Notes: a model not told the origin generated them from the letters alone. DNA of 64,000 bases from an uncultured bacterium (GCA_964568455.1 CAZMPJ010000001.1:233691-297690), one strand, 5' to 3'. Counted from the first letter of the stretch, positions 9,142 through 54,826 are shown. A program made the numbers and translations.

Positions 9142-9142
9142 T

Positions 9143-10939: not shown

Positions 10940-10942
10940 GTA

Positions 10943-16080: not shown

Positions 16081-17457
16081 ATGAGCAAAAAAAATATTTC
16101 TATAATTATTCGTTCCTATAATGAAGAAAAATGGATTGGGGCTTGTCTGGAAGCAATTTTTAAACAAGCGTATAAAGATTTCGAAGTTATTTTAATTGAC
16201 AATAATAGTTCTGACCAAACAGTAAAAAAAGCTGAGAAGTATCCGGTAAAAATAATTAAGATTGATAAATTTTTGCCGGGCCAGGCAATTAATATTGGGA
16301 TCCGTGCTTCGCAGGGAAAATATATTGTTTGCCTATCTGCTCATTGTATCCCAGTTAACACCGAGTGGCTAGGTAATTTGTTGGCTAATTTTAGCGACGA
16401 TAAAGTGGCTGGTGTTTATGGCAGGCAGGAGCCTATGTCTTTCACTTCTGACACTGACAAGAGGGATTTGCTGACGGTTTTTGGTTTAGACAAGAAAATC
16501 CAAACCAAGGATAGTTTTTTCCATAATGCCAATAGTATGATTCGTCGAGATATTTGGGATAAGATTCCTTTTGATGAAAAAATTACTAATATTGAAGACC
16601 GCTTATGGGCTAAGGAAATTGTTAAAGCTGGTTATAAATTAATTTATGAACCGGAGGCCAGTGTTTATCATCACCATGGTATTCATCAGAATCAAAATCA
16701 AGAACGATGTACTAATGTGGTAAAAATTTTAGAAAATCTTGGGAAAGAAGATGGTTATGAATTCCAACATCTGGATTTAAAAGAATTAAATGTCATTGCT
16801 ATTATTCCAGTGAGAGGCCAAGTGCTTAAGCTTAATAATAAGCCTTTGTTGGAATATTCGATTGCCAGTGCCAAAGCCTGTCCTTTTATAAAAAAAGTTA
16901 TTGTCTCTACTGATTCAAAAGAATTGGCAGAAATCGCGAAAAAGGCTGGGGCAGAAGTACCTTTTTTACGTGACCCATCCTTGTCAAAAGAGGATGTGGA
17001 TATTGAGCATGTTTATCAATATACTCTTAAGGAGTTAGAGAAAAAAGGGGTTATTGCTGATATTATAGTGACGTTGGAGAGCACTTTTCCATTTCGTCCT
17101 AAGGGATTTATTGATCAATTGATTTTACGCTTGGTTAAAGAGGGCTTAGATAGTGTTATTGCTGCTAAACCAGAATTTCGGGCTTGCTGGATTAATAATC
17201 AAGGTGAGTTAAAGCGGGTTGATGCGGGGTTTGTTCCACGAAAGTTTAAAGAACCAATGTATCTGGGAGTCCAAAGTTTGGGTTGTGCTACTCATCCGAT
17301 TTTTTTGCGAGCCGGACATTTATTAGGAGAAAAAGTTGGTATTATTGAAGTGAATGATCCCTACAGTTTAGTTGAGGTTAGAGACGAATTAGGCATTCAT
17401 TTTGCCGAGAAATTAATTAAGGATTGGAAGCAATCTATTGGAGAGACAAAAAAATGA
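16081..17457 (+). CDS. Fusion: GT2 glycosyltransferase + C-terminal cytidylyltransferase-like domain
   Basis: IIRSYNEE, IDNNSSD, EDRLWA (GT2); then KPLLEYSI, VSTDS, GAEVPFLR, TFPFR (NeuA-like). Confidence 0.85.
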   Translation: MSKKNISIIIRSYNEEKWIGACLEAIFKQAYKDFEVILIDNNSSDQTVKKAEKYPVKIIKIDKFLPGQAINIGIRASQGKYIVCLSAHCIPVNTEWLGNLLANFSDDKVAGVYGRQEPMSFTSDTDKRDLLTVFGLDKKIQTKDSFFHNANSMIRRDIWDKIPFDEKITNIEDRLWAKEIVKAGYKLIYEPEASVYHHHGIHQNQNQERCTNVVKILENLGKEDGYEFQHLDLKELNVIAIIPVRGQVLKLNNKPLLEYSIASAKACPFIKKVIVSTDSKELAEIAKKAGAEVPFLRDPSLSKEDVDIEHVYQYTLKELEKKGVIADIIVTLESTFPFRPKGFIDQLILRLVKEGLDSVIAAKPEFRACWINNQGELKRVDAGFVPRKFKEPMYLGVQSLGCATHPIFLRAGHLLGEKVGIIEVNDPYSLVEVRDELGIHFAEKLIKDWKQSIGETKK

Positions 17458-26616: not shown

Positions 26617-27665
26617 TTACCATTACAGTAACCACAAAAGATCGTTCTGATTATTTAATTAGATTGCTCAATTATTATGCGGAAGTAGAATATAAACATT
26701 GGATATTTATTGCTGACTCCAGCAATGAACATCATCTCAAGAAAACTAAAGAAGCAATTGCCAGGTTGGAAGGCAAGTTAAAGATTGTCCATCGCGAATA
26801 TCCGGGCAAGATTAATGCGGAGTGTCATAAATATCTAAGCGATTTAATAACTACGCCCTATGTAGCTTTTATTGGGGATGATGATTTTCTTATTCCTAAC
26901 AGTCTTGAAAAGTGCGTGGGTTTTTTGGAGAAAAATCCCCAATATTCATCAGCTCATGGGGCAGCTGTTCTCTTTTCTGCTTATCCGGATGGTCCTTATG
27001 GAGAAATGAGGGGGGTTAGGCAGTATTCTCTTCGAGAAAATAATGCGGAAAAGGCTTCTTTACGGTTGAGTGAATATTTGAATAATTATTTTGTGGTAAT
27101 GTTTGCGGTTCATCGAAGAAAGACGTGGCAGGCAATGTTTAAATATGGCCTTGCGATTAAAGATAAAAGTTTTGCTGATGAGCTTTTGCCTTGTTCTTTA
27201 TCTCTGGTTTATGGAAAAGCAAAAAAACTCGATTGTTTCTATATGCTTAGGCAGGGACATGAGCGGCGCTATTTGTTGCCAACTTGGTTTGATTGGATTA
27301 CCAATCCTAAATGGTTTCTTTCCTATGATATTTTTAGAAAGTCTTTGGCGGAAGGATTGGTAAAGCAAGAGGGGGTTTTACAGGAAGAAGCAAACAAGAT
27401 CGTTGAGCAGGCTTTTTTTGGCTTTTTACGCCGATACCTTATTAGAAAAATTGATCAACCAATAAAGAATCCGGTTCTTAAAATTAGACAAAAGCTTAAG
27501 GAGATAGTTAAGCTTTTACCGGGGATTAGACGATTTTGGAATTTTATTAAGGATTTACGACCTAGAGCAGCTGACGACCTTTCACTTCCCGCTTTATTAA
27601 ATCCAAAATCCAAGTATCATGACGACTTTATGCCGGTTTATCGAATTATTGAGGGGTCGAAATGA
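26613..27665 (+). CDS. GT2-like glycosyltransferase (TIGR00180-type)
   Basis: TKDRSDYLIRLLNYY, IADSS, GDDDF, FAVHR. Confidence 0.75.
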   Translation: MITITVTTKDRSDYLIRLLNYYAEVEYKHWIFIADSSNEHHLKKTKEAIARLEGKLKIVHREYPGKINAECHKYLSDLITTPYVAFIGDDDFLIPNSLEKCVGFLEKNPQYSSAHGAAVLFSAYPDGPYGEMRGVRQYSLRENNAEKASLRLSEYLNNYFVVMFAVHRRKTWQAMFKYGLAIKDKSFADELLPCSLSLVYGKAKKLDCFYMLRQGHERRYLLPTWFDWITNPKWFLSYDIFRKSLAEGLVKQEGVLQEEANKIVEQAFFGFLRRYLIRKIDQPIKNPVLKIRQKLKEIVKLLPGIRRFWNFIKDLRPRAADDLSLPALLNPKSKYHDDFMPVYRIIEGSK

Positions 27666-30046
27666 AAAGAAAAGCAGTAATTCTAGGGGCTGGACCAGTT
27701 GGTTTGATCATTGCATGGAAGTTGTTGGAAAACAATTGGTCAGTAGAGATTTTTGAAAAAGAAGATCAAATAGGCGGCACCTGTAAAACATGGCGCTGGC
27801 AAGATTTTCTTGTTGATACAGGACCACATATTTATCATACTCCGGATCAAGAATTAGCTAAATTTTGGGAATCTGAATTTGGCGATATTATGATCCAGGG
27901 TGATTTTTGGTGCAAAAATGTCAAAGGTGACGATTTTAATGAATTTTGGGATTATCCTTTATCCTGGGAAAGTATTGCTCGCTATCCAAAACAACTCAAA
28001 GAGCAGGTGCTCGGAGAATTAAAAAGTCTGACTTCAGAAGAAAAAGCTAAAGCAAAAAATTATACTGAATACATGGATGCCCAGGTGGGTCCCACTTTGA
28101 GAAAGATGTTTTTTGAGAAATATCCTGAGAAAATATGGGGCATAGCTACTGAGGATATGACGCCAGAGTGGGCGCCTAAGAGAATTGAATTTAGACAGAA
28201 AGTAACTCCTTTTTATCATAATCAGTGGAATGCGGTTGGTAAATTTGGAACTGGTTGTGTTTTTGATCGCATAAAAGAAAAGATTTTGAAACTGGGAGGA
28301 AAAATTAATACTGGCCATGAGGTTTCCGGTATATCTTTTACTGGAAACAGAATAAAGCAAATAGATTTTTCTAATAAAAAGAATATTAAAGTAGCAGAAA
28401 AAGATACTATTATTTCGAGTTTGCCAATAACTATTTTATCGGATCTTTTAGGCTATAAGAGTAAGTTGGAATTTCGCGCTTTGCGCACGGTTTATTTAGC
28501 CTATAATAAAAAAACTGTTTTGCCGGAAGATATCCATTGGTTTTATTATGATTCTGATAAAACCTATTTCCATCGTATTACAGAGCCCAAAAAACTCTCT
28601 CCTTTTGTTGCTCCGGCAGACAAGACCTATTTAACTGCAGAAATAACTTGCAGCAAAGGGGATTCTATATATAAGATGGATTCAGCTGAACTGGCCGAAC
28701 GAGTGGCAGAGCAAGTAGAGGTTGTTGGTTTGGCAAAAAGATCCTTGCTTTTGGCTAACGATACTCATCGAGAAGATTATGTTTATCCTCTTCAAAGAGA
28801 AGGTTACCAAGAAGAGTTAGCAAAAACTCGTTCCGCTATTAGTAAGTTTCAACAGCTTTACTCTTTAGGTACAGGTGGAGAGTTTCATTATTCTGATATT
28901 CAAATTGTTTTCCATAAGGCATTTGATTTAGTGGATATTCTTTGTGGCAAAGATTCTGCTTATGCTCAGGTGATCAGGCAGACGCCAAGTTGTGAGTTAA
29001 ATAGTTCTGTTGTTATTGGCAAAAGAAAGATAGGCGAGGGGGATCGCCCGTATATTATTGCTGAAGCTGGTTTGAATCATAATGGTAGTGTTGCCCTGGC
29101 TAAAAAATTGATAGACGCGTCAAAAGAAGCTGGTTGTGATGCGGTGAAATTTCAAACTTTTACGGCCTCCAGTCGTATTTCTAAAAAAATTAAAGCTGTA
29201 AAATATGCTGAGACAATAATCGGAACAGAGGAAACTCTTTATGATATGTTTGATCGATTGGCTTTAAGTTTTGAACAACAAAAAGAAATTTTTAATTATG
29301 CCCGCAAAAAAGATATCGAAATTTTTTCTACCCCATTTGATTTTGAAGGGGTCGATTTTTTGGAGTCACTAGGTGTTAATGTCTATAAAATTGCTTCGAT
29401 GGATATTGTGAATTTGCCGCTTATCCAATATGTTGCCCAAAAAGGCAAGCCGATCATTCTTTCTACTGGCATGTCTACCCTTGGCCAGATTGAGGAAGCC
29501 GTAAACGTTGTTAAGCAGACAGGCAATCCTAATCTAATGCTCTTGCACTGCAATTCTTCTTATCCAGCTGCGCCGGAAGAAATGAACTTAAATGTGATCA
29601 AGACTTTAAAAACATGTTTTAATATTCCTATTGGTTTGTCTGATCATACTTTTGGCTTGTTTGTTTCACAGGTGGCTATTGCCATTGGAGCTAACATAAT
29701 AGAGCGACATTTTACTTTAGATAGAACAATGGAAGGGCCAGATCATATTTTGTCTTCTGAGCCGGCTGAACTTGCTAATTTGGTTAAAATGGCAAAAAAC
29801 ATCCCTTTAATTTTAGGTGATGGAGTTAAAAAAATTCAACCGAATGAATATGATACACTTAATACACAAAGAAAAAGTTTATATGCAGCTAATAATATAG
29901 AAAAAGGGCAAATAATTGGCAAAGAAATGATCGTGATTAAAGGGCCGGGCGGTGGTATTTTACCTAAACATTTGAACATTGTTATTGGTAGAAAAGCTGC
30001 CAAAAGAATTGAGATGGACCATCCAATAACCTGGGAAGTTATTTAA
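27662..30046 (+). CDS. Fusion: FAD-dependent (UDP-galactopyranose-mutase-like) domain + N-acetylneuraminate synthase (NeuB family, with SAF domain)
   Basis: GAGPVG, DTGPHIYHT, YPEKIWG; from about aa 445 IAEAGLNHNG, KFQT, STGMS, HCNSSYP, SDHT, ERHFTL, RKSL. Confidence 0.88.
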   Translation: MKRKAVILGAGPVGLIIAWKLLENNWSVEIFEKEDQIGGTCKTWRWQDFLVDTGPHIYHTPDQELAKFWESEFGDIMIQGDFWCKNVKGDDFNEFWDYPLSWESIARYPKQLKEQVLGELKSLTSEEKAKAKNYTEYMDAQVGPTLRKMFFEKYPEKIWGIATEDMTPEWAPKRIEFRQKVTPFYHNQWNAVGKFGTGCVFDRIKEKILKLGGKINTGHEVSGISFTGNRIKQIDFSNKKNIKVAEKDTIISSLPITILSDLLGYKSKLEFRALRTVYLAYNKKTVLPEDIHWFYYDSDKTYFHRITEPKKLSPFVAPADKTYLTAEITCSKGDSIYKMDSAELAERVAEQVEVVGLAKRSLLLANDTHREDYVYPLQREGYQEELAKTRSAISKFQQLYSLGTGGEFHYSDIQIVFHKAFDLVDILCGKDSAYAQVIRQTPSCELNSSVVIGKRKIGEGDRPYIIAEAGLNHNGSVALAKKLIDASKEAGCDAVKFQTFTASSRISKKIKAVKYAETIIGTEETLYDMFDRLALSFEQQKEIFNYARKKDIEIFSTPFDFEGVDFLESLGVNVYKIASMDIVNLPLIQYVAQKGKPIILSTGMSTLGQIEEAVNVVKQTGNPNLMLLHCNSSYPAAPEEMNLNVIKTLKTCFNIPIGLSDHTFGLFVSQVAIAIGANIIERHFTLDRTMEGPDHILSSEPAELANLVKMAKNIPLILGDGVKKIQPNEYDTLNTQRKSLYAANNIEKGQIIGKEMIVIKGPGGGILPKHLNIVIGRKAAKRIEMDHPITWEVI

Positions 30047-43626: not shown

Positions 43627-44750
43627 AGATACCCTTATCCAATCCAGATATTAGTCAAAAGGAGATTGAGGCTGTTTTAGAGGTGTTAAAGACCCCGAAC
43701 TTAAGCTTGGGACCAAAATTAGGCGAGTTTGAATCAAACTTTGCCGCTTATGTTGGGACGCGGCATGCGATTGCTGTTAACAGCGGGACCAGTGGTTTGC
43801 ATTTGTGTGTTAAAGCTATGGGCTTGAGTGATGGTGATGAAGTAATTACCACGCCGTTTAGTTTTATTGCTTCAGCTAATTGTATTCTATTTGAAAGGGC
43901 CAAGCCTGTTTTTGTCGATATTCGACAAGATACACTGAATATTGATGAAGCAAAAATTGAGGCCAAGATTACTAAAAAAACAAAGGCGATTTTGCCGGTC
44001 CATATTTTTGGTTATCCAAGTGAGATGGAAAAAATCCAGAAAATCGCTGATAAACATGGCTTAAAGGTGATTGAAGACTCTTGTGAAGCAATCGGAGCAA
44101 AACTTAATAAAAAGATGTCTGGTTCCTTTGGTAATGCGGCTGTCTTTGCTTTTTATCCTAATAAGCAGATGACAACTGGCGAAGGCGGGATGCTTGTTAC
44201 GGATGATGACGAGTTGGCCAGATTGGCACGGAGCATGAGGAATCAGGGTCGGGATGAGGGGATGGGTTGGTTAGCCCATAATCGGCTTGGTTACAATTAC
44301 CGGTTAAGCGATATTAATTGTGCTTTAGGTATTGCCCAATTGAGCAGGATTTCGGAGATATTAGCCAAACGAGAAAAAGTTGCCGGCATTTATAATAATA
44401 TGTTGGCTGGAGTTAAAGAATTAATTTTGCCGCCACTTGATACTAATCAGATTAAGAGGAGCTGGTTTGTTTATGTGGTTCAATTAAGCAAAGAATATTC
44501 TCAAAGTCAAAGAGATGCTGTAGTAAAAAAGCTTAGAGCAGCTGGGATAGGTTGTAATGTATATTTTCCACCAATCCATTTGCAGCCTTTTTATCAAAAA
44601 TCTTTTGGGTTTAAAAAAGGGGATTTCCCGGTTACAGAACAAGTGTCTGAACGAGCGATTGCTTTGCCGTTTTATAATAATCTGAAAAAAGAGCAAATTG
44701 ACTGTGTAATAAAAAATTTAATAACTAGTATTAAGGAGGTAAAGGTATGA
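43623..44750 (+). CDS. DegT family sugar aminotransferase
   Basis: NSGTSGLH, EDSCEA, FYPNKQMTTGEGG, GYNYRL. Confidence 0.93.
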   Translation: MKIPLSNPDISQKEIEAVLEVLKTPNLSLGPKLGEFESNFAAYVGTRHAIAVNSGTSGLHLCVKAMGLSDGDEVITTPFSFIASANCILFERAKPVFVDIRQDTLNIDEAKIEAKITKKTKAILPVHIFGYPSEMEKIQKIADKHGLKVIEDSCEAIGAKLNKKMSGSFGNAAVFAFYPNKQMTTGEGGMLVTDDDELARLARSMRNQGRDEGMGWLAHNRLGYNYRLSDINCALGIAQLSRISEILAKREKVAGIYNNMLAGVKELILPPLDTNQIKRSWFVYVVQLSKEYSQSQRDAVVKKLRAAGIGCNVYFPPIHLQPFYQKSFGFKKGDFPVTEQVSERAIALPFYNNLKKEQIDCVIKNLITSIKEVKV

Positions 44751-45748
44751 AAAATTATTTTAAAGGAAAAAGAGTCTTAGTAACCGGAGGTACTGGTTCC
44801 ATTGGTAGCGAAATTGTCAGGCAGGTAGAAAAATTTGAGCCGGATGTTATTAGAGTTTACAGTAATGATGAAGACGCCCAGTTTAGTCATTCACAAGGGC
44901 GTCCACGCAAAGGTTGTGTGCGCTTTTTATACGGAGATATCAGAGAAGAAGAGCGTTTAAGCTGGGCCATGGAAGGCATTGATATTGTTTTTCATGCTGC
45001 GGCCTTAAAACATGTTCCTGCTTGTGAGTATGATCCTTTTGAAGCTGTTAAAACCAATGTTATCGGCACTCAAAATGTTATTAAAGAAGCTTTAGCCCAC
45101 AATGTTGAGAAGGTCATTAACATCAGCACAGATAAGGCTGCCAATCCCATCAATGTTTTGGGTGCAACCAAGCTCTTGGCTGAACGAATTACTATCTCAG
45201 CCAATCATTATCGTGGAAATAAAAGAACAATCTTTTCCAGCGTTCGGTTTGGCAATGTGTTGGCTTCAAGGGGTTCGGTTGTTCCGGTTTTTAAGAATCA
45301 GATTGAAAACGGGGAATCAGTTACAGTAACTGATCCTGAAATGACTAGGTATATTATGAGTATTTCTCAGGCGGTTGGATTAATTTTGAAATCGGCAGTT
45401 GCTGCTAAGGGCGGCGAAATTTTTATCTTAAAAATGCCGGCTGTCAAAATTGGAGCGTTAGCGGAAGCAATGGTTGAAATGTTTGTTCCAAAAGATGGAG
45501 TTAAATCACCAGTTGAAAAGATCAAGCAAATTGGCCTAAGACAAGGGGAAAAGTTTCATGAAGAGCTGATGACTCATATCGAATTATTAAATGCAGTTGA
45601 AAATGATGGTATGTATATTGTTACTCCTAGCTTGATGGATAAGGTTAGAGGCAAAGAAATTATTCCGGAACATAATTCTTCGCATGCAAAAATATTATCC
45701 AAACAAGAAATAAAGAAGATATTAAAAGAGGTTATTGTAACGACATGA
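44747..45748 (+). CDS. UDP-GlcNAc 4,6-dehydratase family (Polysacc_synt_2)
   Basis: GGTGSIG, HAAALKHVP, STDKA, RFGNV..SRGSV, GEKFHEE. Confidence 0.92.
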   Translation: MKNYFKGKRVLVTGGTGSIGSEIVRQVEKFEPDVIRVYSNDEDAQFSHSQGRPRKGCVRFLYGDIREEERLSWAMEGIDIVFHAAALKHVPACEYDPFEAVKTNVIGTQNVIKEALAHNVEKVINISTDKAANPINVLGATKLLAERITISANHYRGNKRTIFSSVRFGNVLASRGSVVPVFKNQIENGESVTVTDPEMTRYIMSISQAVGLILKSAVAAKGGEIFILKMPAVKIGALAEAMVEMFVPKDGVKSPVEKIKQIGLRQGEKFHEELMTHIELLNAVENDGMYIVTPSLMDKVRGKEIIPEHNSSHAKILSKQEIKKILKEVIVTT

Positions 45749-46692
45749 AGCTTGCGGAGAAAACACCCTTAATTGATAATGTTGTGTTTGTTAATGGCTT
45801 AACCAGGTCAGGAAAATTCTTTTTTAGTAAGATTGTCTGTGGTTTTGATAAAATGGAGCATTTTCTTTATGTGCCGCAACTTGATCAACTAGCTTTTTTA
45901 GAACGTTTGGGTTCCTTAGACAAAAACACTGCAACTGTGTTATTGCGTTCAATGGTTGATTACCATGCCTTAAATCTGAGATTAGGCAGGGATTTAAATT
46001 TTCGCCGGGATGATGCATCATCATTAGAGAATTCTTATGAAAAAGAACTGTATTTAAAAAGGGCAGCTGCTCCAGTTAATCAGAATATTGTTGGAGAAAT
46101 CAATAGTGATGGGCGCAACTCGGTTTTTTTGCTTCATGAAAGCTTACCGCAAATAGCTTTATTTCTTAATGCATTTCCCAAATTAAAATGGCTTAATATT
46201 AGCAGGCACCCAATTGATCTGGTACATTCCTGGTACCTAAGGGGGTGGGGGCACAGGTTTATTGATGACCCGCTTTCTTTTACTCCTGTTATTGCAACAA
46301 AAGATTCTCCCGTTCCCTGGTATTTTTTTGAGCGACAAGAAGAATATGCTAGCTTGACGCAGATGGATCGGATAATAAAAAGCATTGCTATTTTATTTGA
46401 TCTAGAACAGGCTGCTTATGCCGCCTTACCTGCTAATAAAAAAGAACAGGTCATGTTAGTTAACTATGAAAATCTGCTAGAAAAAACTGAAACAGAAGTA
46501 AAAAGATTGGGAGATTTTTTAAAGGTCAATCCTTCTAAGAACCTACCAAGTATATTAGCTAAAGAAGGTTGTCCAAAAGTGATTCCTGCAGCGGCAAGAA
46601 AAAAAAAGAAACAGACAATTAAGGAGTTGGCCAGCCCAGAAATATTTGAGCTATTAAATTTCTTGGTGTCAGAATATGAAAAAAGAAAATAA
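45745..46692 (+). CDS. Sulfotransferase family protein
   Basis: GLTRSGK (5'-PSB-like), RHPIDLVHSW (3'-PB-like), YENL. Confidence 0.75.
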   Translation: MKLAEKTPLIDNVVFVNGLTRSGKFFFSKIVCGFDKMEHFLYVPQLDQLAFLERLGSLDKNTATVLLRSMVDYHALNLRLGRDLNFRRDDASSLENSYEKELYLKRAAAPVNQNIVGEINSDGRNSVFLLHESLPQIALFLNAFPKLKWLNISRHPIDLVHSWYLRGWGHRFIDDPLSFTPVIATKDSPVPWYFFERQEEYASLTQMDRIIKSIAILFDLEQAAYAALPANKKEQVMLVNYENLLEKTETEVKRLGDFLKVNPSKNLPSILAKEGCPKVIPAAARKKKKQTIKELASPEIFELLNFLVSEYEKRK

Positions 46693-48865
46693 AAAAATAA
46701 AGATATTATGCACGCTAGGGCCATCGTCACTGGATGGTAAAACTATCTCAAAAATGAGTAACTTAGGCGTAGACATATTTCGTCTTAATTTGTCACATAC
46801 AGAGCTTGATCGACTTGAAGAATTAATCTTGTTGATAAAAAAACATACAGCCAAACCAATCTGTCTTGATACTGAGGGAGCACAAGTGCGTACTGGTTAT
46901 GTTAAGGATAATAGAATCTATCTAGAAGATGACAGTCAGGTGGTAATAACTGGGACAAATCTAATTGGCGATAATAAAACGATTTGTTTTAATCCTGAGT
47001 TTGTGCCAGCACTATTGCAACCAGGGGATCAAATCGGGATTGATTTTGAATCGGTTATTCTTCAAATAATTTCTAGCGATCAAAAATCAGCAGTAGCGAG
47101 AGTCGTCTCGGGCGGTTATATCGGGAGCAACAAAGCTGTCACGATTGATCGAGAGATAGAATTACCGGTTGTTTCAAAAAAAGATCAAGCAGCAATCAAG
47201 ATCGGTCGCCGGCATGGCATTAATCATTTTGCTTTATCATTTGCCAGTTGTGGGCAAGATGTGCAGGCTTTTCGCCGTTTGATTGGTGAAAAAAGCAAAT
47301 TGATTGCAAAGATAGAAAATAAAAGAGGGGTAGAAGCGCTAAAGGAAATATTAATTTATGCTGATGCTATTCTAATCGATCGAGGTGACCTTTCCAGGGA
47401 AGAACCGATTGAGAAAATACCCTTTCTGCAAAAATTAATCATTAATCAAGCAAATAAAGAAAAAGTTCCGGTTTATGTGGCAACTAATTTATTGGAATCT
47501 ATGGTTAAGGTAACAATGCCTACCAGGGCAGAAGCTGGCGATGTGATCAATACCTTAATGGATGGGGCTGATGGCTTGGTTCTGGCTGCGGAAACCGCTA
47601 TTGGAGCTTATCCTGTAAATTGCGTGGCAATGATCAGAAAAATGATTAGCCAATATTCTCAGTATTCTCATGGTATTTCTTTGTCAGAACTGCAAAGAAA
47701 AGAATCCTTTTTGTTAAATGAACCTAATGGTGGTCGGTTGGTTAATCAACTGTTTATTAATCAAAAAGGAAACGAATTATCAAAATATAAGTCATTGATG
47801 GTTGATAAAAACGTCTTGCTTGATGCCGAACAGATAGCAATTGGAACTTTTTCACCTGTAACAGGATTTATGAATAAGCAAGAAGTTGACTCTGTACTGC
47901 GTGACCATCGCTTGCCTAGCGGGGTAATCTGGCCGTTGCCTATTCTTTTACAGCTGACTCAGCAGGAGATTCAAGGTTTAAAGATAGGGGAAAAGGTAGT
48001 CTTAACTGATCAAACTACCGGAGAACCCTATGCCATATTAACGATTGAAGACATTTATAATTATGATTTGGATATTATTTGTCGGGAAACTTTTGGCACG
48101 CTTGAGTCCAATCATCCTGGAGTGCAGGTTATAAAAAGTAAGGGAAAATATTTTTTAGGTGGACCAATTAAATTAATCAAACGCTTACCTTCAAAGTTTA
48201 AACAATATGAAATCACCCCTAAGCAAGCAAGAAACATTTTTGAGAATAAGGGTTGGAGCAATGTTGTTGGTTTTCATACCAGAAATGTGATTCATCGGGT
48301 CCATGAATATATACAGTTACTTTCCCTAGAAAATTTTCATTGTGATGGCTTGTTTGTTCACCCAGTAGTTGGCCCTAAAAAAGAGGGTGATTATAAAGCG
48401 GATATGATTTTAAAAAGCTATGAATTAATGTTGAGTAAATATTATCCTAAGGGTAAAGTTGTTTTAGCTGCCTTTCAAAATCATTCCAGATATGCTGGGC
48501 CAAGAGAGGCAGTCTTTACTGCTCTTTGTAGAAAAAATTTCGGTTGTAGCCATTTTATTGTTGGACGAGATCATACTGGAGTTGGCAATTATTATGGACC
48601 AAAAGACAGCCAAAAATTATTTACATCCTTGGGAGATATTGGTATAACCCCGATATTTTTTAATGAATTACATTATTGTAAAAAATGTGACAGTTATGTG
48701 GAACGTTGTTCTCATGATCAAATAAATGTTTTGTCAGTCAGTGGCACGGGGGCACGCCAAATGTTAAAAGCAGGAGATTGTCCCCCAGAATGGTTTATGA
48801 GAAAAGAGATTGCTAGTCTGATTATTGATCAGATTAAGCAGGGGCAGGAGGTATTTGTCAGGTGA
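46676..48865 (+). CDS. Fusion: pyruvate kinase (A/B domains) + sulfate adenylyltransferase (Sat)
   Basis: CTLGPSS, RLNLSH, AKIEN, RGDL, ATNLLESM, PTRAE, DGAD..LAAETA; then FSPVTGFM, GFHTRNVIHRVHE, YAGPREA, HFIVGRDHTG. Confidence 0.9.
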   Translation: MKKENKKIKILCTLGPSSLDGKTISKMSNLGVDIFRLNLSHTELDRLEELILLIKKHTAKPICLDTEGAQVRTGYVKDNRIYLEDDSQVVITGTNLIGDNKTICFNPEFVPALLQPGDQIGIDFESVILQIISSDQKSAVARVVSGGYIGSNKAVTIDREIELPVVSKKDQAAIKIGRRHGINHFALSFASCGQDVQAFRRLIGEKSKLIAKIENKRGVEALKEILIYADAILIDRGDLSREEPIEKIPFLQKLIINQANKEKVPVYVATNLLESMVKVTMPTRAEAGDVINTLMDGADGLVLAAETAIGAYPVNCVAMIRKMISQYSQYSHGISLSELQRKESFLLNEPNGGRLVNQLFINQKGNELSKYKSLMVDKNVLLDAEQIAIGTFSPVTGFMNKQEVDSVLRDHRLPSGVIWPLPILLQLTQQEIQGLKIGEKVVLTDQTTGEPYAILTIEDIYNYDLDIICRETFGTLESNHPGVQVIKSKGKYFLGGPIKLIKRLPSKFKQYEITPKQARNIFENKGWSNVVGFHTRNVIHRVHEYIQLLSLENFHCDGLFVHPVVGPKKEGDYKADMILKSYELMLSKYYPKGKVVLAAFQNHSRYAGPREAVFTALCRKNFGCSHFIVGRDHTGVGNYYGPKDSQKLFTSLGDIGITPIFFNELHYCKKCDSYVERCSHDQINVLSVSGTGARQMLKAGDCPPEWFMRKEIASLIIDQIKQGQEVFVR

Positions 48866-51078
48866 GCAAAGCCTTAATCTTTTGGTTTACAGGTTTATCT
48901 GGTTCGGGTAAAACAACAATTGTTAACCGAATGGTTGAAGGACTGCGGCAACAGAATAAGAAAGTTAAAGTGTTTGACGGGGATGTTGTTCGACGAGAAA
49001 AAAATAATCATTTAACCTTTTCTCCTTCGGATATAAAAGAAAATAACCGGCTTATAGTTGAAATGTGCTTAGAAAACAGAGAGCTTTATGATTATATCTT
49101 TGTGCCGATTATTGCTCCTTTTCAGGAATCAAGAGATTACGCTAGACGAATGCTTGGGCCGTCTTTTTTTCTTGTTTATTGCTCAGCCGATCTTAAGACA
49201 GTTAGCAAGAGAGATCCCAAGGGGCTTTATGCCAAAGTTAAGGCTGGAAAAATAGATAATTTTATTGGTATCCATAAAGAGGTTCCATATCAAGTTCCGG
49301 ATGATGCTGATTTAGTATTGGAGACCGGAAAAGAAGACGTATTAACCTCGATTAATAAAATGACAGCCTTTTTTCAACGTGTTAATGGTCCTTTATTGCA
49401 TGCACTTAATGAGGCAGTTGGTGAACTCACCTTAAAAATAGCTAAGGATATTAAAAACTTGGCTTATTATCAGCAAATAGAACAGCAATTAGGCAGTGAA
49501 AAATTATTAATGTTTTTAAAATTGAATATAGCCATAGAGATCAAACCTTTTATTAAACAGCTTTTGGCCCAGCAAGCCCAGTTGCCAGCGACATTCCTTT
49601 TCCCTTTGAAAAATGATTTTAGTCTGGGGCGTCAGATGATTCGAAGTATGGGGAAAAAAGCAATAGCTTGGGTGGATAAAATTTTGGCCTTAGGTAAATT
49701 TACCATGGATTCAGAAAAAGAACCGACGATTGCGGTTCATTACTCAGAAGGAGTTGACTTTGAAAGACGTTCGGATATTGCTTGGTTTAAAAATAGTGGC
49801 ATAAAGCCCCAACAGCTATTGATTTATTTTGACGGTCTTGACAGTGTTACCAGGCAACCGATCAGTGAAACGGTTTTAGCTCAAATCGAAGCAATGGGTA
49901 TACGTTGGGTGGCGCTAAAACGCGGGGTTGTTTCACGGCATAATAAAAATGTCTGGGCGCCGCCTTTGTTTATTAAAACGAACTATAGAATTAAAAAGCC
50001 CCGAAACCACTTAGAACAATGGATTTACCGACAAGTAAAAAAACTTGTTGCTGAAATAAATTATTGGCAAGCTTTTTATCGAGCCTTTAATGTTAAGTTG
50101 CTCTTACTTCCTGAACAAGGTTCGCCTCCCAATATTGCTCAGGGAATTGCTTTTGACCTGATGAGTAAAAATGCTGGATTCACCTTGGGTAAACAACGCT
50201 CTGATTTGGGAGTTCCTAGACAGGCTCTCGTCGGGCATCATACCAAGGATGTTTATTTTGCCTGGAATAACAGGTCAGCACAATTCTTAAAATCTCCTTA
50301 TAACCTAGTAAGGTCAATGGTTGTTACCGGGAATCAAAATGATCATAATTTTAATGGAGTTAATGAGGAATTAAGAGATGAAAAATTAAAATTACAGAAA
50401 AACGGAGCAAAGTTCATTATTGCTCTGTTTGATACTGGGCAGGGTAACCCGCTGAATCGGACAGTTGCTTCTATGGAAATGGAGGTCTTTTATCGCTCAT
50501 TTATCGAGTGGCTGCTTAAGGATAAATCGCTAGGCTTAGTAATAAAATCTAAGAAGCCTTACGTTATAAATTCGTTGCCAAATATCCCGAGTTTGCTGGC
50601 TCAAGCTGAAGCAACTGGGAGATGCCTACGCTTACCGCATGAGTTTGGCCGGATGCCGACCGATGCTTCAAAAATTTCTGACATAGCGGTAGGCATTGGC
50701 ATTAATTCTGCTGTGACTGAAGCAGTTATTGCTGGCTGCAAAGGGATACATTATTTAAACAGCTTTCCTTGCCAAAATGAATATTACCAATGGGGATTTG
50801 AGCAGTTAGTTTTTAATGATTTGACTAGAATGATCTCAGAGCTTCAGGCTTTTAAAGCTGCACCAGAAGCTAATCCAGGCTTGGGAGATTGGTCTAAATA
50901 TTTGGATAAACTGGATCCGTTTAGGGATGGAGTCGCGGGTGAGCGAATGGGGAAATATATGCACTGGTTATTAGAGAGTTTTACCGACGGGTTGAGCAGG
51001 GAAGATATTTTAAAAAAAGCGAATGAACGTTATGCGGCTGTTTGGGGAAATGATAGAATTGCAGTATTGAGCAATTAA
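48862..51078 (+). CDS. Fusion: adenylyl-sulfate kinase (CysC) + ~560 aa unknown domain
   Basis: WFTGLSGSGKTT, DGDVVR, RDPKGLY, NFIGI; C-terminal part paralogous to 53081..54826. Confidence 0.88.
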   Translation: MSKALIFWFTGLSGSGKTTIVNRMVEGLRQQNKKVKVFDGDVVRREKNNHLTFSPSDIKENNRLIVEMCLENRELYDYIFVPIIAPFQESRDYARRMLGPSFFLVYCSADLKTVSKRDPKGLYAKVKAGKIDNFIGIHKEVPYQVPDDADLVLETGKEDVLTSINKMTAFFQRVNGPLLHALNEAVGELTLKIAKDIKNLAYYQQIEQQLGSEKLLMFLKLNIAIEIKPFIKQLLAQQAQLPATFLFPLKNDFSLGRQMIRSMGKKAIAWVDKILALGKFTMDSEKEPTIAVHYSEGVDFERRSDIAWFKNSGIKPQQLLIYFDGLDSVTRQPISETVLAQIEAMGIRWVALKRGVVSRHNKNVWAPPLFIKTNYRIKKPRNHLEQWIYRQVKKLVAEINYWQAFYRAFNVKLLLLPEQGSPPNIAQGIAFDLMSKNAGFTLGKQRSDLGVPRQALVGHHTKDVYFAWNNRSAQFLKSPYNLVRSMVVTGNQNDHNFNGVNEELRDEKLKLQKNGAKFIIALFDTGQGNPLNRTVASMEMEVFYRSFIEWLLKDKSLGLVIKSKKPYVINSLPNIPSLLAQAEATGRCLRLPHEFGRMPTDASKISDIAVGIGINSAVTEAVIAGCKGIHYLNSFPCQNEYYQWGFEQLVFNDLTRMISELQAFKAAPEANPGLGDWSKYLDKLDPFRDGVAGERMGKYMHWLLESFTDGLSREDILKKANERYAAVWGNDRIAVLSN

Positions 51079-51091
51079 AAGAGGATATATA

Positions 51092-51805
51092 GTGGATGAT
51101 AAAAAACGAAAAATATTAATAACGATTGCTGCTCGTGGCGGCTCCAAAGGAGTAAAAAATAAGAATATTCGGCCCTTATGTGGCTTGCCACTTATTGCTC
51201 ATACAATCAAACAAGCCAAAAAATGGGGACGAGCAGATAAAATTGTTTGTTCAACCGATTCTGAAAATATAGCCATAGTAGCTAAGGAATATGGCGCTGA
51301 AGTGCCATTTGTTCGTCCAAGTGATTTGGCGAATGACACTGCTGGTAAAGTAGCTGTAATTCGGCACGCTTTATTAGAAATGAAAGAGGATTATGATATT
51401 ATTGTTGATCTGGATGTTACGGCGCCTATAAGAAAAATTAGTGATATTGATGGGGCCGTAAATCTGTTTTTAGAAAAGAAGGCTAAGACTGTTTTTAGTG
51501 TTACTTCTGCTCGCCGCAGTCCCTATTTTAATATGGTTGAACAGGCGCAAAGTGGATTTGTTCATCTGGTTAAGAAGCTTAAAACGCCACTGGTTAGGCG
51601 ACAAGACTCGCCTCGGGTTTATGATATGAACGCTTCGATTTATGTTTACGATAGAGACTATCTTTTGGATCCTACAACCAAAGCTGCTATCTCTGACAAG
51701 TCGTTAATCTGGGAAATGGATGAGCTCTCGGCTTTTGATATTGATTGCGAAGCAGATTTTAAATTTGTTGAATTCTTGGTTTCGCAGGGGATGGTAAAGC
51801 TATGA
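51092..51805 (+). CDS. neuA: CMP-nonulosonate synthetase (NeuA/LegF/PtmB family)
   Basis: ARGGSKGVKNKN, STDS, TAPIR, RRQD, DID. Confidence 0.88.
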   Translation: MDDKKRKILITIAARGGSKGVKNKNIRPLCGLPLIAHTIKQAKKWGRADKIVCSTDSENIAIVAKEYGAEVPFVRPSDLANDTAGKVAVIRHALLEMKEDYDIIVDLDVTAPIRKISDIDGAVNLFLEKKAKTVFSVTSARRSPYFNMVEQAQSGFVHLVKKLKTPLVRRQDSPRVYDMNASIYVYDRDYLLDPTTKAAISDKSLIWEMDELSAFDIDCEADFKFVEFLVSQGMVKL

Positions 51806-52539
51806 AGAACTTAAAAAAACAAGTGATCCTTATTAGTGGGGGCTCGGGTTTACTTGGACAAGAGTTTGTTAAGGCTCTAATTGCCAAAAAGGCTATTGTT
51901 GTAAATCTTGATCTTAAGACATCTGGAAACAAAGAAGCAGAATTTATTAAATGTGATATTACTGACAAGAAATCTATTCAAATTGCTTTAAACAAAGTCT
52001 TGGCCTCTCACGGAAAAATTGACGCTCTGGTAAGTTGTGCCTATCCCAAAAACAAAAACTTTGGCAGAAGATATGAAGAGGTAGAGTATAACGACTTTTG
52101 CGAAAATGTTAACCTTCATCTTGGGGGATATTTTCTACTTAGCCAGCAAGTGATTCATCAAATGAAAAAGCAAAAACATGGCCAGATAATCTTTTTAGCC
52201 TCAGTCTATGGAGTTATTGCTCCTAAATTTGAGATATATGAAGGGACTAAAATGACTATGCCAGTGGAATATGCTGTAATTAAGGCAGCTATTATTCATT
52301 TGGCTAAATATTTAGCCGAATACCATAAAAACTATAATATTAAAGTGAATTGTATTTCACCTGGTGGAATCCTTGATAATCAACCCGAGGTGTTTGTTAA
52401 GAATTACCGTGAACATTGTTTATCTAAAGGAATGCTTGATAAGACTGATGTGAATGAAACACTGTTGTCAATATTGTCTGATCCAGACAGTCATAAGAAT
52501 GGAGCCAATATCATTGTTGATGATGGATTTAGCTCATGA
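51802..52539 (+). CDS. SDR oxidoreductase, PtmA (flagellin modification protein A)-like
   Basis: GGSGLLG, HLGGYF, MTMPVEYAVIK, SPGGI, VDDG. Confidence 0.82.
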   Translation: MKNLKKQVILISGGSGLLGQEFVKALIAKKAIVVNLDLKTSGNKEAEFIKCDITDKKSIQIALNKVLASHGKIDALVSCAYPKNKNFGRRYEEVEYNDFCENVNLHLGGYFLLSQQVIHQMKKQKHGQIIFLASVYGVIAPKFEIYEGTKMTMPVEYAVIKAAIIHLAKYLAEYHKNYNIKVNCISPGGILDNQPEVFVKNYREHCLSKGMLDKTDVNETLLSILSDPDSHKNGANIIVDDGFSS

Positions 52540-53084
52540 TTATTATTGAATTTATTAAACGAATAAAATTTTGGTTAAAAGCTGACCGGCTAGGGCCTGA
52601 TATTCCGTTAACATATCACATGCTCTTTTTCCCAAGCTTAATGAGGAGGATTTGCCGGAAAAAGTTCAGACATTTTGGCCAAGGGGCAGATTTTCGACCT
52701 GGAGCGCTGGCCTATGGTTGTTCTAATATTTCAATCGGTGATCGAGTTATAATCAGACCAGGAACAATGTTGTTTGCAGATGTGAGAGAAAACGGAGCAG
52801 GGATAACCATTGAAAATAATGTTTTGATTGGCAGTGGGGTTCACTTCTATTGTGTAAACCATAAATTTAGTGATCCGAATGTTCCGATTATTAATCAAGG
52901 TCATTCTGATTCTAAGCCAGTAGTTCTAAAACAAGGTTGCTGGATTGGTGCCAATGCAATTATTTTGCAGGGGGTCACAGTCGGAAGCAATTCAGTGATT
53001 GGGGCCGGCTGCGTAGTTACCAAGGATGTACCTCCAAAAACTGTGGTAGTTGGTAATCCAGCCAGAGTCATTAAAAAATTATGA
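52536..53084 (+). CDS. Hexapeptide-repeat acyltransferase
   Basis: GCWIGANAIILQGVTVG, GNPAR. Confidence 0.9.
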   Translation: MIIIEFIKRIKFWLKADRLGPDIPLTYHMLFFPSLMRRICRKKFRHFGQGADFRPGALAYGCSNISIGDRVIIRPGTMLFADVRENGAGITIENNVLIGSGVHFYCVNHKFSDPNVPIINQGHSDSKPVVLKQGCWIGANAIILQGVTVGSNSVIGAGCVVTKDVPPKTVVVGNPARVIKKL

Positions 53085-54826
53085 AAACGTTGTCATATGA
53101 TATGAAAACAATGTGGGATGTAAACAATGACACCTTATTATTGGGTATTGGTGCGGTAACGGGTGATTTTGTGCTACGTTTGAGTGAAGAAATTCAAAAA
53201 ACCGCAGCTTGGCAAAAACTGCAAGCTATTTTGCCGAGTGATAAACTGATTGCTTATTTTCAAAGCCGTTTGGGCAAAGAAATTTATCCTTTTGTTTCTC
53301 AAATGATGGTTTTGCGGCAAAAGAAAAGCAAAACACCAATGTGGTTGCCCAAGTCTGGAATTTTTACTCTGTTGCGAGATCTTTGGCCAAAAGATGAGGT
53401 TCCGCTTAAAAATGATTTTAAAAGAGAATTGCAATTCTTGTGGCAAAGGAACCGTGCTGCTTGGGGAACAGGTTTAAAAAGAAAAATTAAATATTGGCGG
53501 AGTTATTTTTTTTCTAAGTCTAAAACAGCTGCTAAAACACCGGTCATCGCTGTCCGTTATTCCGAAGGTTTAGACTTAACCAGAAGGTCAGATATTGCTT
53601 GGTTCCCACAAAGCGGTCTAAAGCCTGAACAAGTCTTAATTTGCTATAGTGGTTCAATCAAAGAAAAACCGCAGGGCATGCCAATGGTTTCATTATCATC
53701 TTGGCGGCCAGCCAAAACTGCTTTTACTTTATTGAAAGAATATCGATTCTGGACTCTAAATAGTTTAGAGCGCTGGGTAAAAGAAATTGCAGAGGACCTT
53801 TTAGCCGAAATTGGCTATTGGTCAGATTTTTACGCTGAATATAATGTCAAACTTTTTCTCTTGCCAGAGATGGGGCAACCAACTAGCATTGCTCAAGGGA
53901 TAGCCTTTGATTTGGTAGGAGGTTTGAGTGTTGGTAAACAGCGCTCAGAAACCGGTTTCCCCCTTAAAACTTATGTCTCTTTCCATACCAAAGACCTGCA
54001 GTTTATCTGGAACAAGAGAATGATTGATTATTTGCACCCGCCAATCAATCAAGTAGCTACTGCAGTTATTGCAGGTTATCTTAATGATGTTATCTTTTCC
54101 CCTGTCAGTCAAGAATTAACTGATCTAAAAAATGAGCTCAATTCTAATGGCGCCAAATTTATTGTGACGTTATATGATACGGGCCATGGTGGCGAGACAT
54201 ATTTTTCTTCTCAAGACTTAGAAGCGTTGTATCGGGTTTTTCTTGATTGGGTTTTAACTGATCCAACCGTTGGCTTGGTCATCAAATCAAAAAAAGATTA
54301 TATTATTGCAACTCTACCTGGGATTCACAAACTATTGGCTCAAGCAGAAAAAACAGGCCGCTGTCTCCGTTTAGGAAATACTTTTGGCCGTTTGGCTTCT
54401 GATGCTTCGAAAATTGCTGATTTTGCAGTTGGCTACACCGTTAGCTCCGCAGTAACAGAAGCGGTGATTGCTGGTTGTCGAGGTATTCATTATCAGAAAG
54501 CATATCCCAAGCAACATGACTATTACAGATGGGGCTTAGATCAGATTGTTTTTAATGATTTAGTTGGAATGATGCGAGAATTAAAAAAATATAAAGCTGA
54601 TCCTACCTCAAATCCAAAACTTGGCAATTGGGCTGAATATCTGGATCAACTGGATCCTTTCCGCGACGGGCGTGGGGGTGAGAGGATGGGAACTTATTTG
54701 CGTTGGTGCTTAGAAGGTTTTTCTGCCGGGCGAGACCGGGAAGCGGTGCTTGAGCAAGCTAATGAAAAATATACCACAGCTTGGGGTAAGGATAAAATTA
54801 TGACATTTAAAGGGGGAAATACATGA
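53081..54826 (+). CDS. Hypothetical protein, stand-alone paralog of the CysC-fused domain
   Basis: YSEG..RRSDIAWF, GKQRS, SAVTEAVIAGCRGIHY, LDPFRDG.GERMG shared with the 48862 ORF. Confidence 0.7.
   Translation: MKTLSYDMKTMWDVNNDTLLLGIGAVTGDFVLRLSEEIQKTAAWQKLQAILPSDKLIAYFQSRLGKEIYPFVSQMMVLRQKKSKTPMWLPKSGIFTLLRDLWPKDEVPLKNDFKRELQFLWQRNRAAWGTGLKRKIKYWRSYFFSKSKTAAKTPVIAVRYSEGLDLTRRSDIAWFPQSGLKPEQVLICYSGSIKEKPQGMPMVSLSSWRPAKTAFTLLKEYRFWTLNSLERWVKEIAEDLLAEIGYWSDFYAEYNVKLFLLPEMGQPTSIAQGIAFDLVGGLSVGKQRSETGFPLKTYVSFHTKDLQFIWNKRMIDYLHPPINQVATAVIAGYLNDVIFSPVSQELTDLKNELNSNGAKFIVTLYDTGHGGETYFSSQDLEALYRVFLDWVLTDPTVGLVIKSKKDYIIATLPGIHKLLAQAEKTGRCLRLGNTFGRLASDASKIADFAVGYTVSSAVTEAVIAGCRGIHYQKAYPKQHDYYRWGLDQIVFNDLVGMMRELKKYKADPTSNPKLGNWAEYLDQLDPFRDGRGGERMGTYLRWCLEGFSAGRDREAVLEQANEKYTTAWGKDKIMTFKGGNT

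Follow-up and report, generated by a model that had tools for sequence, protein, structure and literature searches.

Known sulfate-activating systems and the locus studied here

PAPS (3'-phosphoadenosine 5'-phosphosulfate) synthesis is itself a known process, and in several described systems its consecutive steps, catalyzed by ATP sulfurylase (Sat) and adenosine 5'-phosphosulfate kinase (APS kinase, or APSK), are coupled physically or by fusion. We analyzed a 64,000 nucleotide stretch of DNA from an uncultured bacterium (GCA_964568455.1 CAZMPJ010000001.1:233691-297690; "the window" means this whole stretch, and positions are counted from its first letter) in which a single gene joins a pyruvate kinase (PK) module to a Sat-type ATP sulfurylase and lies between a putative sulfotransferase gene and an APS kinase gene. 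The probable role of the fused or coupled PK is the removal of ADP and resupply of ATP at the expense of phosphoenolpyruvate (PEP).

The bifunctional PAPS synthases (the Aquifex aeolicus enzyme 2GKS, the fungal ATP sulfurylases and human PAPSS1/2) follow the same route to PAPS and share a common Sat-type core with the window protein; 2gks aligns with amino acids (AAs) 370–718 of the latter with an E-value of 1.2e-69. They differ in that the window APS kinase is encoded by a separate, overlapping gene and that the added module of the window protein is a PK; Sat and APS kinase share a single polypeptide in its relatives P0281, P0291, P0297 and P0084, but not in the window. The passages on domain architecture in a 2014 review (PMC4220642) list ATP sulfurylase (ATPS) alone, APK-ATPS, APK-ATPS-PPiase, ATPS-APK and ATPS-APR, and none of those listed includes a PK. 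The nearest analogues in logic are the APSK-ATPS-pyrophosphatase fusions of diatoms, haptophytes and Phytophthora, where an enzyme that removes a by-product has been fused on; the relevant sections of PMC4220642 and PMC3734648 put forward as a hypothesis that the fused pyrophosphatase exerts a pull on sulfate activation. Those eukaryotic fusions remove pyrophosphate (PPi), which comes from the Sat step, whereas the PK-Sat fusions, which are bacterial and archaeal, would remove the ADP that the kinase step yields and would draw on PEP for additional energy. An identical enzyme set (sulfurylase, APS kinase, and PK with PEP) is in use for PAPS synthesis in vitro, and there, according to the part of PMC9885120 that deals with the cascade, ADP removal prevents inhibition of the APS kinase. 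There, enzymes that are unrelated to one another are mixed in the laboratory, whereas the natural version is one polypeptide or one cassette. In rhizobia, NodP and NodQ, together with NodH, constitute an extra sulfate-activation set beside a sulfotransferase in a glycoconjugate locus. NodPQ is a GTPase-coupled sulfurylase of the CysDN type with no PK, and it is an additional set, whereas the set in the window is the only one of its genome. Some cultured rhizobia (strains of Mesorhizobium, Sinorhizobium saheli and Ensifer) bear PK-Sat too. A search of the full-text literature, which did not cover subscription-only papers and supplements, found no description of a PK-sulfurylase fusion.

The fusion gene is genuine and widespread

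The genes and domains of the cassette, all on the plus strand, are the following:

45745..46692, +, putative PAPS-dependent sulfotransferase, 315 AAs (Pfam Sulfotransfer_1, conserved motifs)
46676..48865, +, PK-PUA-Sat fusion protein, 729 AAs, ATG start (open reading frame (ORF) call, Pfam, NCBIfam, homologues)
46691..47626, +, PK A/B barrel module, AAs 6–317 of the fusion, no C-terminal domain (PF00224, E 2.5e-70)
47627..47719, +, variable inter-domain linker, AAs 318–348 (low conservation)
47720..48826, +, Sat-type ATP sulfurylase, with PUA_2 at AAs 349–503 and the catalytic part at AAs 510–717 (Pfam, NF003166)
48862..49386, +, APS kinase domain, AAs 1–175 of a 738-AA ORF (Pfam APS_kinase, 1.8e-38)
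49387..51078, +, 563-AA C-terminal domain of the APS kinase ORF (nothing matched in Pfam or PDB)

An earlier note on this DNA had described one ORF that joins a PK core to a full Sat domain and lacks a C-terminal regulatory domain, and the domain searches agree with that description. In Pfam the 729-AA protein matches the PK barrel over AAs 6–317 (237.6 bits, profile positions 2–328 of 328), PUA_2 (E 1.4e-41) and ATP-sulfurylase (E 6.7e-79), and a search with PK_C (PF02887) gives no match to it. PF00224, PF14306 and PF01747 are present together in all 120 of the best homologues listed (50–63% identity), which the databases call either "sulfate adenylyltransferase" or "pyruvate kinase". A genome scan with one genome per species returned at least 592 pattern matches, of which at least 506 are confirmed relatives; the "80 genome loci" discussed below (given L numbers) are the best 80 of these, and both halves are covered in 79 of them, the remaining one ending at a contig edge. 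The search for PK-Sat architectures and their surroundings that the earlier note had proposed has thus turned up relatives in at least 506 species genomes, together with PAPS-making partners.

The same note had named an assembly error near 47660 as one of the findings that would undo it. The PK/Sat junction (about 47651–47723) is bridged with zero differences by contigs of runs X5, X6 and X7, none of which is flagged as a possible source of the window DNA, and these contigs span 47511–47888 or more without insertions or deletions. The linker ends in a conserved L347-x-x-P350-H-G-G motif, which counts against a frameshift. With the bridging contigs, the 120 listed homologues and the 79 loci, an assembly or frameshift artefact at this point is ruled out. 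The junction between the PK-Sat and APS kinase genes is bridged by contigs of three to four runs, again with no differences, and that between the APS kinase and the 563-AA domain by contigs of four runs; all of this bridging is of low depth and comes from two studies only.

As had been claimed, the fusion ORF overlaps both of its neighbours. Its overlap with the sulfotransferase gene is 17 nt long (46676–46692) and that with the APS kinase gene 4 nt (GTGA, 48862–48865), with a GGAGG preceding the GTG, and through the GTGA overlap the APS kinase is predicted to be translationally coupled to PK-Sat. The end of the unit, which had been placed at about 49380, is a domain boundary and not the end of a gene; the APS kinase ORF (48862–51078, plus strand, 738 AAs, GTG start) continues well beyond it. 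Scanning 44500–52000 for promoters and terminators gave no excess over shuffled sequences (14 vs 21.7 expected, and 9 vs 5.7 ± 2.2), and the cassette bears no compositional sign of recent transfer (GC 0.380 vs 0.384 for the genome; tetranucleotide distance at the 45th percentile).

Carriers found in the genome scan are labelled Omnitrophota, Deltaproteobacteria, Planctomycetota, Chloroflexota, Elusimicrobia, Nitrospina, Acidobacteria, Actinomycetes and candidate phyla radiation (CPR) bacteria, and there is one Woesearchaeote. Among cultured organisms, Methyloversatilis universalis FAM5, Sinorhizobium saheli LMG 7837, several Mesorhizobium strains and Ensifer adhaerens have the fusion; it is carried by Ensifer megaplasmids, and two full-length plasmid matches stand without annotation in PLSDB.

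The pyruvate kinase module

The residues that we take to form the PEP, divalent-metal, monovalent-cation and nucleotide sites of PK (R36, N38, S40, H41, D65, R72, K212, E214, D238, T270 and E306) are invariant, as is G68, in the 27–28 fusions aligned, and K153 is nearly so; the invariant residues also match the housekeeping PK and align with the motifs of the solved PK 7z4r. The motif set RxNxSH, DTxGxxxR, KIE, RGD, AT..LESM and ET is present, so that the earlier statement that the PK motifs are intact stands, and the module looks catalytically competent. In 27 fusions 68 of the 312 PK columns are invariant (mean pairwise identity 0.55), compared with 54 of 208 in the Sat domain (0.65) and one of 31 in the linker (0.31), and constraint on the PK module is by this measure comparable to that on the Sat module. 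The fusion module shares a complete A/B barrel and its catalytic residues with canonical PKs (PF00224 plus PF02887) and differs from them in having no C domain, in forming a separate clade, in its T/E/Q signature (below) and in scoring under the TIGR01064 cut-off in NCBIfam (281 bits vs 306.4); the low score arises because only profile positions 1–347 of 476 are present.

In a quick LG+G4 tree of 80 fusion PKs and 21 housekeeping PKs from the same genomes, the two groups are split with an SH-aLRT value of 100. A separate, higher-scoring housekeeping PK is kept in 23 of the 32 fusion genomes examined. The genome of the window has one as well, a 338-AA protein whose gene adjoins that for triose-phosphate isomerase (C1:462556-463509; L001:1438-2454, minus strand) and to which the fusion module is 34% identical. 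Because it forms a clade of its own and stands beside a housekeeping PK in those 23 genomes and in the window genome, the module is, to judge from these comparisons, an extra, specialised PK. Its want of a C domain had been read as a special, "allostery-free" trait, and this is not supported: the housekeeping PK of the window genome has no C domain either, PK_C is not found anywhere in that genome, and PK frames of about 340 AAs occur in several of its relatives, so the missing domain is a trait of the lineage and not of the fusion.

Another explanation is that the module is a plain glycolytic PK that was fused to Sat by chance and has no specific link to sulfation. In its favour, no other PK was found in nine of the 32 fusion genomes, and housekeeping PKs devoid of a C domain do occur in the carrier lineage. 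We nonetheless regard this as very improbable, given that one fusion-PK clade spans many phyla and lies apart from the hosts' own PKs, that 23 of the 32 genomes have a separate housekeeping enzyme, that members of the clade sit in sulfation cassettes even when they are unfused (see below), and that the fusion and its Sat part are absent from all 30 relatives of the window genome that were searched (15 of the same family and 15 of the same order).

The sulfurylase and APS kinase parts

The Sat part scores above the sulfate adenylyltransferase cut-offs of NF003166 (434.6 bits vs 387) and TIGR00339 (363.4 bits vs 322.95), and the closest solved sulfurylase is 8a8d from Methanothermococcus thermolithotrophicus (E 3.2e-102). 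We take QxRN, HxxH and GRDHAG to be the active-site motifs of sulfurylases. HxxH (H540 and H543) and GRDH(T)G are present, and in QxRN the Q is replaced throughout the PK-Sat family by an invariant H534 (FHTRN; window 48275–48277), a position at which the solved sulfurylases 8a8d, 1v47 and 2gks all have Q.

The APS kinase matches PF01583 at AAs 4–153 (E 1.8e-38, 132.4 bits) and TIGR00455 with 138.7 bits, which is exactly the cut-off. It has the P-loop, DGD and KGLY motifs, and G11, G16, K17, D39, G40, R44, D118, K120, G121 and Y123 are invariant in an alignment of 30 sequences. Homology to APS kinases is confined to the first 175 or so residues of the 738-AA ORF.

Partners of the fusion in other genomes

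Of the 80 genome loci, 41 have an APS kinase by tblastn, directly downstream of the fusion or overlapping it in 34, and the adjacent APS kinases that were called as ORFs are all (33 of 33) stand-alone proteins of 170–210 AAs. Sulfotransferase homologues are present in at least 40 of the 80 loci and lie within one gene of the fusion in 28. By ORF search at least 62 loci have an APS kinase or a sulfotransferase, and 65 when tblastn matches are added. In the 38 loci with no nearby APS kinase, a Pfam scan of 136 of the 142 ORFs (six very long ones were left out) placed a sulfotransferase no more than two genes away in 22. Thirty-six of the 39 genomes that have no APS kinase in the fusion locus encode one elsewhere, and the other three are metagenome-assembled genomes (MAGs) of 1.2–2.8 Mb; the idea that the PK is a stand-in for a missing APS kinase is therefore rejected.

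The earlier note had also coupled this system to nonulosonate synthesis through PEP, the substrate of NeuB. A NeuB homologue is present in 12 of the 80 loci and never within two genes of the fusion, and a CMP-sugar synthetase in 16, where it is rarely adjacent; we reject a general link on these counts, and PEP would make PK and NeuB competitors, not coupled enzymes.

Other genes recur nearby. A transporter of the Na+/H+-exchanger (CPA) family lies beside PK-Sat/APSK in 11 of the 80 loci (L031, L049, L060, L064, L069 and others), no more than two genes away in ten of these, and TauE-family permeases are recurrent in sulfation cassettes; both are candidate sulfate carriers. Genes of the Sulfatase/AlkP families adjoin PK-Sat in L025, L029, L059 and L061.

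Other arrangements of the PK clade

An exhaustive search that used only the PK module as query returned 15,299 matches at E≤1e-3, and the best 150 representatives (P numbers) were classified with local domain hidden Markov models (HMMs). Besides PK-Sat, the clade includes fusions with APS kinase but no Sat, triple fusions, and free-standing proteins encoded upstream of APS kinase. Eighty-five of the 150 are PK-Sat, three are PK-Sat-APSK triple fusions (P0281, P0291 and P0297) and two, P0203 and P0302, are PK-APSK with no Sat, both bearing the clade motifs; in 60 no further domain was found with the two HMMs used. P0084 is an APSK-PK-Sat protein. According to Pfam, P0326 (1151 AAs) is Phosphodiest(AlkP)-PK-Sat and P0305 (786 AAs) Phosphodiest-PK, and this type-I phosphodiesterase/nucleotide-pyrophosphatase domain could be a by-product hydrolase or some transferase. 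Thirty-three of 149 representatives are only 315–380 AAs long, mostly with the clade motifs, and a further tree places 29 of 30 PKs of this short type within the fusion-type clade, interspersed with fusions.

Metagenome loci were fetched with ten short PKs as the query (598 pattern matches, 590 of them relatives, the best 80 kept). In 47 of these 80 the PK is fused to Sat, in 28 it is free-standing, with a stop codon 1–32 residues past the PK domain, four are cut by the contig end and one is apparently split. In 17 of the 28 free-standing loci an APS kinase begins 29–207 nt downstream (L107–L113, L120, L138, L144, L147, L161, L162, L167, L173, L176 and L178); five others have less than 350 nt of downstream DNA, and in L125 an APS kinase lies about 1.4 kb upstream. 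An HMM search for the Sat domain (E≤1, 227,396 nt) found it in none of the 28 free-standing loci, while the same search found it in 49 of the 52 other loci as a control, and no CysD/CysN-type Pfam match was seen among the ORFs scanned in five free-standing loci of 16–17 kb. By Pfam the free-standing PK cassettes sit in nonulosonate-type glycan loci, with gene orders that include:

TauE-sulfotransferase-PK-APSK in L144 and L173
sulfotransferase-PK-APSK-TauE in L120
sulfotransferase-PK in L132 and L185
ORF with no Pfam family-PK-APSK in L108 and L113

A conserved protein of 430–442 AAs is always encoded just 5' of the free-standing PK-APSK pair in L107, L108, L111 and L113 (the L107 and L111 ORFs were assigned to this family by local phmmer), and a different protein of 422–426 AAs recurs in L120 and L144. 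Neither has similarity to Sat or belongs to a Pfam family, and a hidden sulfurylase in the free-standing cassettes is rejected on this, on the Sat HMM result for the 28 loci and on the lack of CysD/CysN-type matches among the ORFs scanned in five of them.

Across these arrangements the PAPS pathway is the constant companion of the PK clade, and where a single enzyme of that pathway is left next to the PK, it is APS kinase. The PK-APSK fusions, the free-standing PK-APSK cassettes and the fact that its reaction is the only one to produce ADP point to APS kinase as the partner of the PK. These arrangements bear as well on the proposal that the module is a regulatory or scaffold domain, which senses PEP or ADP, or sets the oligomeric state of Sat, with no turnover. 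Fungal ATP sulfurylase, whose oligomeric state is set by an APS-kinase-like C-terminal domain, provides a model for it. The module lacks the allosteric C domain of canonical PKs, its active site is bordered by fixed non-canonical residues, and it scores under the PK equivalog cut-off, all of which would suit such a role. Domains can, moreover, change roles in this family: P0183, P0201, P0210, P0213, P0225, P0247 and P0284 end in short, degenerate remnants similar to the sulfurylase core, with no PUA domain, no HxxH and no GRDH, and P0187 has a CBS-like pair C-terminal to its fusion-type PK. On the other hand, all of the canonical PEP, Mg2+ and nucleotide residues are invariant, K212, E214, D238 and T270 among them, and a pure binding role would not need the full set; the free-standing copies, too, adjoin an APS kinase where there is no Sat to regulate. 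We consider such a regulatory or scaffold role unlikely.

A probable role: PEP-driven removal of ADP during PAPS synthesis

The reading that we favour, and think likely though far from certain, is that the PK drives PAPS synthesis by PEP-dependent ADP removal and ATP resupply. The Sat part would convert ATP and sulfate to APS, the coupled APS kinase would convert APS to PAPS with production of ADP, and the N-terminal PK module, positioned beside kinase and sulfurylase, would convert that ADP and PEP to ATP and pyruvate, for a net reaction of sulfate + ATP + PEP → PAPS + PPi + pyruvate. The PAPS would pass to the adjacent sulfotransferase, with some glycan or sugar precursor of the surrounding 64-kb island as acceptor; the PAPS reductase encoded on contig 7 of the genome (below) would probably draw on it as well. 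The sequence comparisons establish that the architecture exists and is genuine, how it is distributed, which residues are conserved and what the gene context is, whereas we infer the catalytic steps, and any physical contact with the APS kinase. APS kinase catalyzes the only ADP-producing step of PAPS synthesis, and for that reason the simplest interpretation is that PEP serves to recycle ADP to ATP. The activation of sulfate is thermodynamically unfavourable, and the ADP that APS kinase produces holds the enzyme back; in vitro, chemists get round this with PK and PEP. In the portion of PMC9885120 that describes the in-vitro cascade run without PK and PEP, the PAPS peak was "practically missing" and ADP accumulated.

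PEP-driven ATP recycling had been proposed in the earlier note, and it is supported by the competent-looking PK and by the PAPS-making partners revealed by comparison of genomes; the attributes attached to it (self-contained, allostery-free, dedicated to glycan sulfation, coupled to nonulosonate synthesis) are not. By the established stoichiometry, one adenylate is kept in each PAPS made. The ADP is thus not merely catalytic, and the unit is not self-contained, since only the nucleotide of the kinase step is recycled.

Several observations weigh against ADP removal as the role of the module. Most members fuse the PK to Sat, which produces no ADP, and not to APS kinase. Neither an APS kinase nor a sulfotransferase was detected with our own seed sequences in at least 15 of the 80 genome loci, and five free-standing PK loci have none of the latter even though their downstream DNA is long enough to reveal an APS kinase. 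In the nine genomes, all small MAGs, where the fusion is the sole PK found, it may also serve glycolysis. Finally, the module departs in a fixed manner from ordinary PKs near its active site, with ldtEgAQvr instead of ldtKgPEir, DRGDLS for ARGDLG, ATNLLESM for ATQMLESM and LAAETA for LSGETA. These departures, together with the score under the TIGR01064 cut-off, leave room for a changed specificity or cation dependence of the PK.

The departures could mean that the module acts on another substrate or by another chemistry, with GDP, AMP or PAP as acceptor, with APS in the place of ADP as its analogue, or with sulfuryl instead of phosphoryl transfer. E67, Q70, D235, S240, A304 and A305 are invariant where 7z4r has K, E, A, G, S and G, respectively, and the invariant H534 of the Sat part stands where the three solved sulfurylases carry Q. 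PMC8835810, PMC4284704 and PMC4374775 give T/K/E/T at rabbit positions 113/114/117/120 for K+-dependent PKs and L/Q/K/(L,I,V) for K+-independent ones; the fusion PK has T/E/Q/T (T66/E67/Q70/T73), which fits neither, and the housekeeping PK of the window genome has L/Q/R/T. Against a new chemistry, an ordinary APS kinase adjoins the PK, is fused to it or is encoded elsewhere (in 36 of the 39 genomes with none in the locus), so that the standard route to PAPS is complete without it, and the neighbouring sulfotransferases are of PAPS-dependent families. A different substrate or reaction is in our judgement decidedly unlikely. Its broadest form, in which the clade is not an ordinary ADP kinase and the invariant PK substitutions together with the Q-to-H change in Sat mark a retuned chemistry, is likewise a slim prospect; the module could then act on the nucleotide bound in the dead-end complex of APS kinase, use APS, PAP or AMP as the phosphoryl acceptor, or take part in a sulfuryl transfer that involves the enolpyruvate system. 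Peliska and O'Leary are said to have described sulfuryl transfer by pyruvate kinase with sulfoenolpyruvate in 1989, and our search of the full-text literature for sulfoenolpyruvate found nothing related.

Sulfur metabolism of the carrier genome

The genome that contains the window is 1.62 Mb in size and 97.65% complete. The fusion is its sole match to PF01747 (sulfurylase) and the next gene its sole match to PF01583 (APS kinase). On contig 7 a PAPS reductase (CysH), above the equivalog cut-off, is encoded between a regulator like Rrf2/CymR and a CysP-like permease, and a sulfite reductase is encoded 10 kb beyond it. With a single Sat and a single APS kinase in the genome and CysH and sulfite reductase elsewhere in it, the pair in the window is most likely the sole source of PAPS and would serve assimilation as well as the one detectable sulfotransferase, and the dedicated role in glycan sulfation that had been supposed is not supported.

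No family-I soluble pyrophosphatase was found in the genome (family-II enzymes were not searched for), and a membrane H+/Na+-pyrophosphatase is present at C5:28669-30588 (889 bits). The combination hints at a metabolism that conserves PPi, and the pull of PPi hydrolysis on sulfate activation may be weaker in such a setting.

One gene at the end of the window is the only match to PF00459 in the genome:

63265..63999, +, inositol-monophosphatase-family gene with its 3' end beyond the window, possibly but uncertainly a PAP phosphatase (PF00459)

Its best NCBIfam match is to FBPase/IMPase (133 bits vs a cut-off of 264), and with 90 bits against CysQ TIGR01331, whose cut-off is 229, it is not assignable to CysQ.

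The flanking genes and the glycan island

The ORF upstream of the fusion passes the Pfam Sulfotransfer_1 (PF00685) cut-off weakly (E 2.4e-6, 27.6 bits vs 22) and falls under that of PF13469 (23.8 bits vs 27). Its GxTRSGK and R(H/N)PxDxxxSWY motifs, which we take to be the 5'-PSB-like and 3'-PB-like motifs of sulfotransferases, are conserved in seven sequences (itself and six homologues), and homologues lie directly 5' of PK-Sat in L005, L010 and L036. It is the sole sulfotransferase of the genome that is detectable with Pfam, being the single match to PF00685 (PF13469 has none). The flanks of the fusion are thus a putative sulfotransferase and an APS kinase, in line with the earlier note.

The 563-AA domain that follows the APS kinase has no family in Pfam and no match in a PDB profile search, and a relation to a TagF-like protein is rejected (hhalign probability 0.3). 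It has 58 homologues, which are stand-alone "hypothetical" proteins of about 600–690 AAs; the kinase-fused copy is found in the window genome alone. Twelve of 26 members of the family match TIGR04417 (PFTS-motif polysaccharide protein) weakly, with a best E-value of 6.2e-10, and this is the sole annotation signal for the domain. A paralogue (581 AAs, 47% identity) is encoded 2 kb downstream at 53081–54826. The closest relative of the locus, L005, has the sulfotransferase, PK-Sat, APSK and a 563-AA-family member in that order, which matches the window, and in L010 the family member is one gene farther downstream. Since the gene order in L005 and L010 parallels that in the window, the family may have a part in sulfation; its members could, for instance, be transferases with PAPS or the sulfated sugar as substrate.

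The window as a whole is a glycan-biosynthesis island of at least 64 kb on one strand. It contains two NeuB genes, five cytidylyltransferase genes besides that at 51092, four DegT aminotransferase genes besides that at 43623, epimerases, dehydratases and an ABC exporter, and many of its ORFs have no family; the run of ORFs at 3535–12696 has no Pfam family at E≤1e-12. Two other, unusual fusions are present, a flavin amine-oxidase-like domain N-terminal to NeuB (27662–30046, 794 AAs) and a GT2 glycosyltransferase with a cytidylyltransferase (16081–17457, 458 AAs).

Implications

The motifs D[TS]EGAQ, LIDRGDLS, ATNLLESM and LAAETA make a handy genomic marker for sulfation cassettes, and the cultured carriers make the PK-Sat hypothesis directly testable. 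If it is true, compact biocatalysts for enzymatic sulfation would be on offer, e.g. for heparin- and chondroitin-type products. Should the chemistry instead prove to be retuned, PPi-conserving microbes would have a variant pathway of sulfate activation that is driven primarily by PEP and not by the hydrolysis of PPi. If PEP-driven ADP removal is correct, the PK/PEP arrangement, whether the PK is joined to Sat or to APS kinase or is encoded next to the latter, would be a natural, widespread and evidently selected means by which many uncultured phyla and PPi-conserving anaerobes secure PAPS for sulfated surface glycans.

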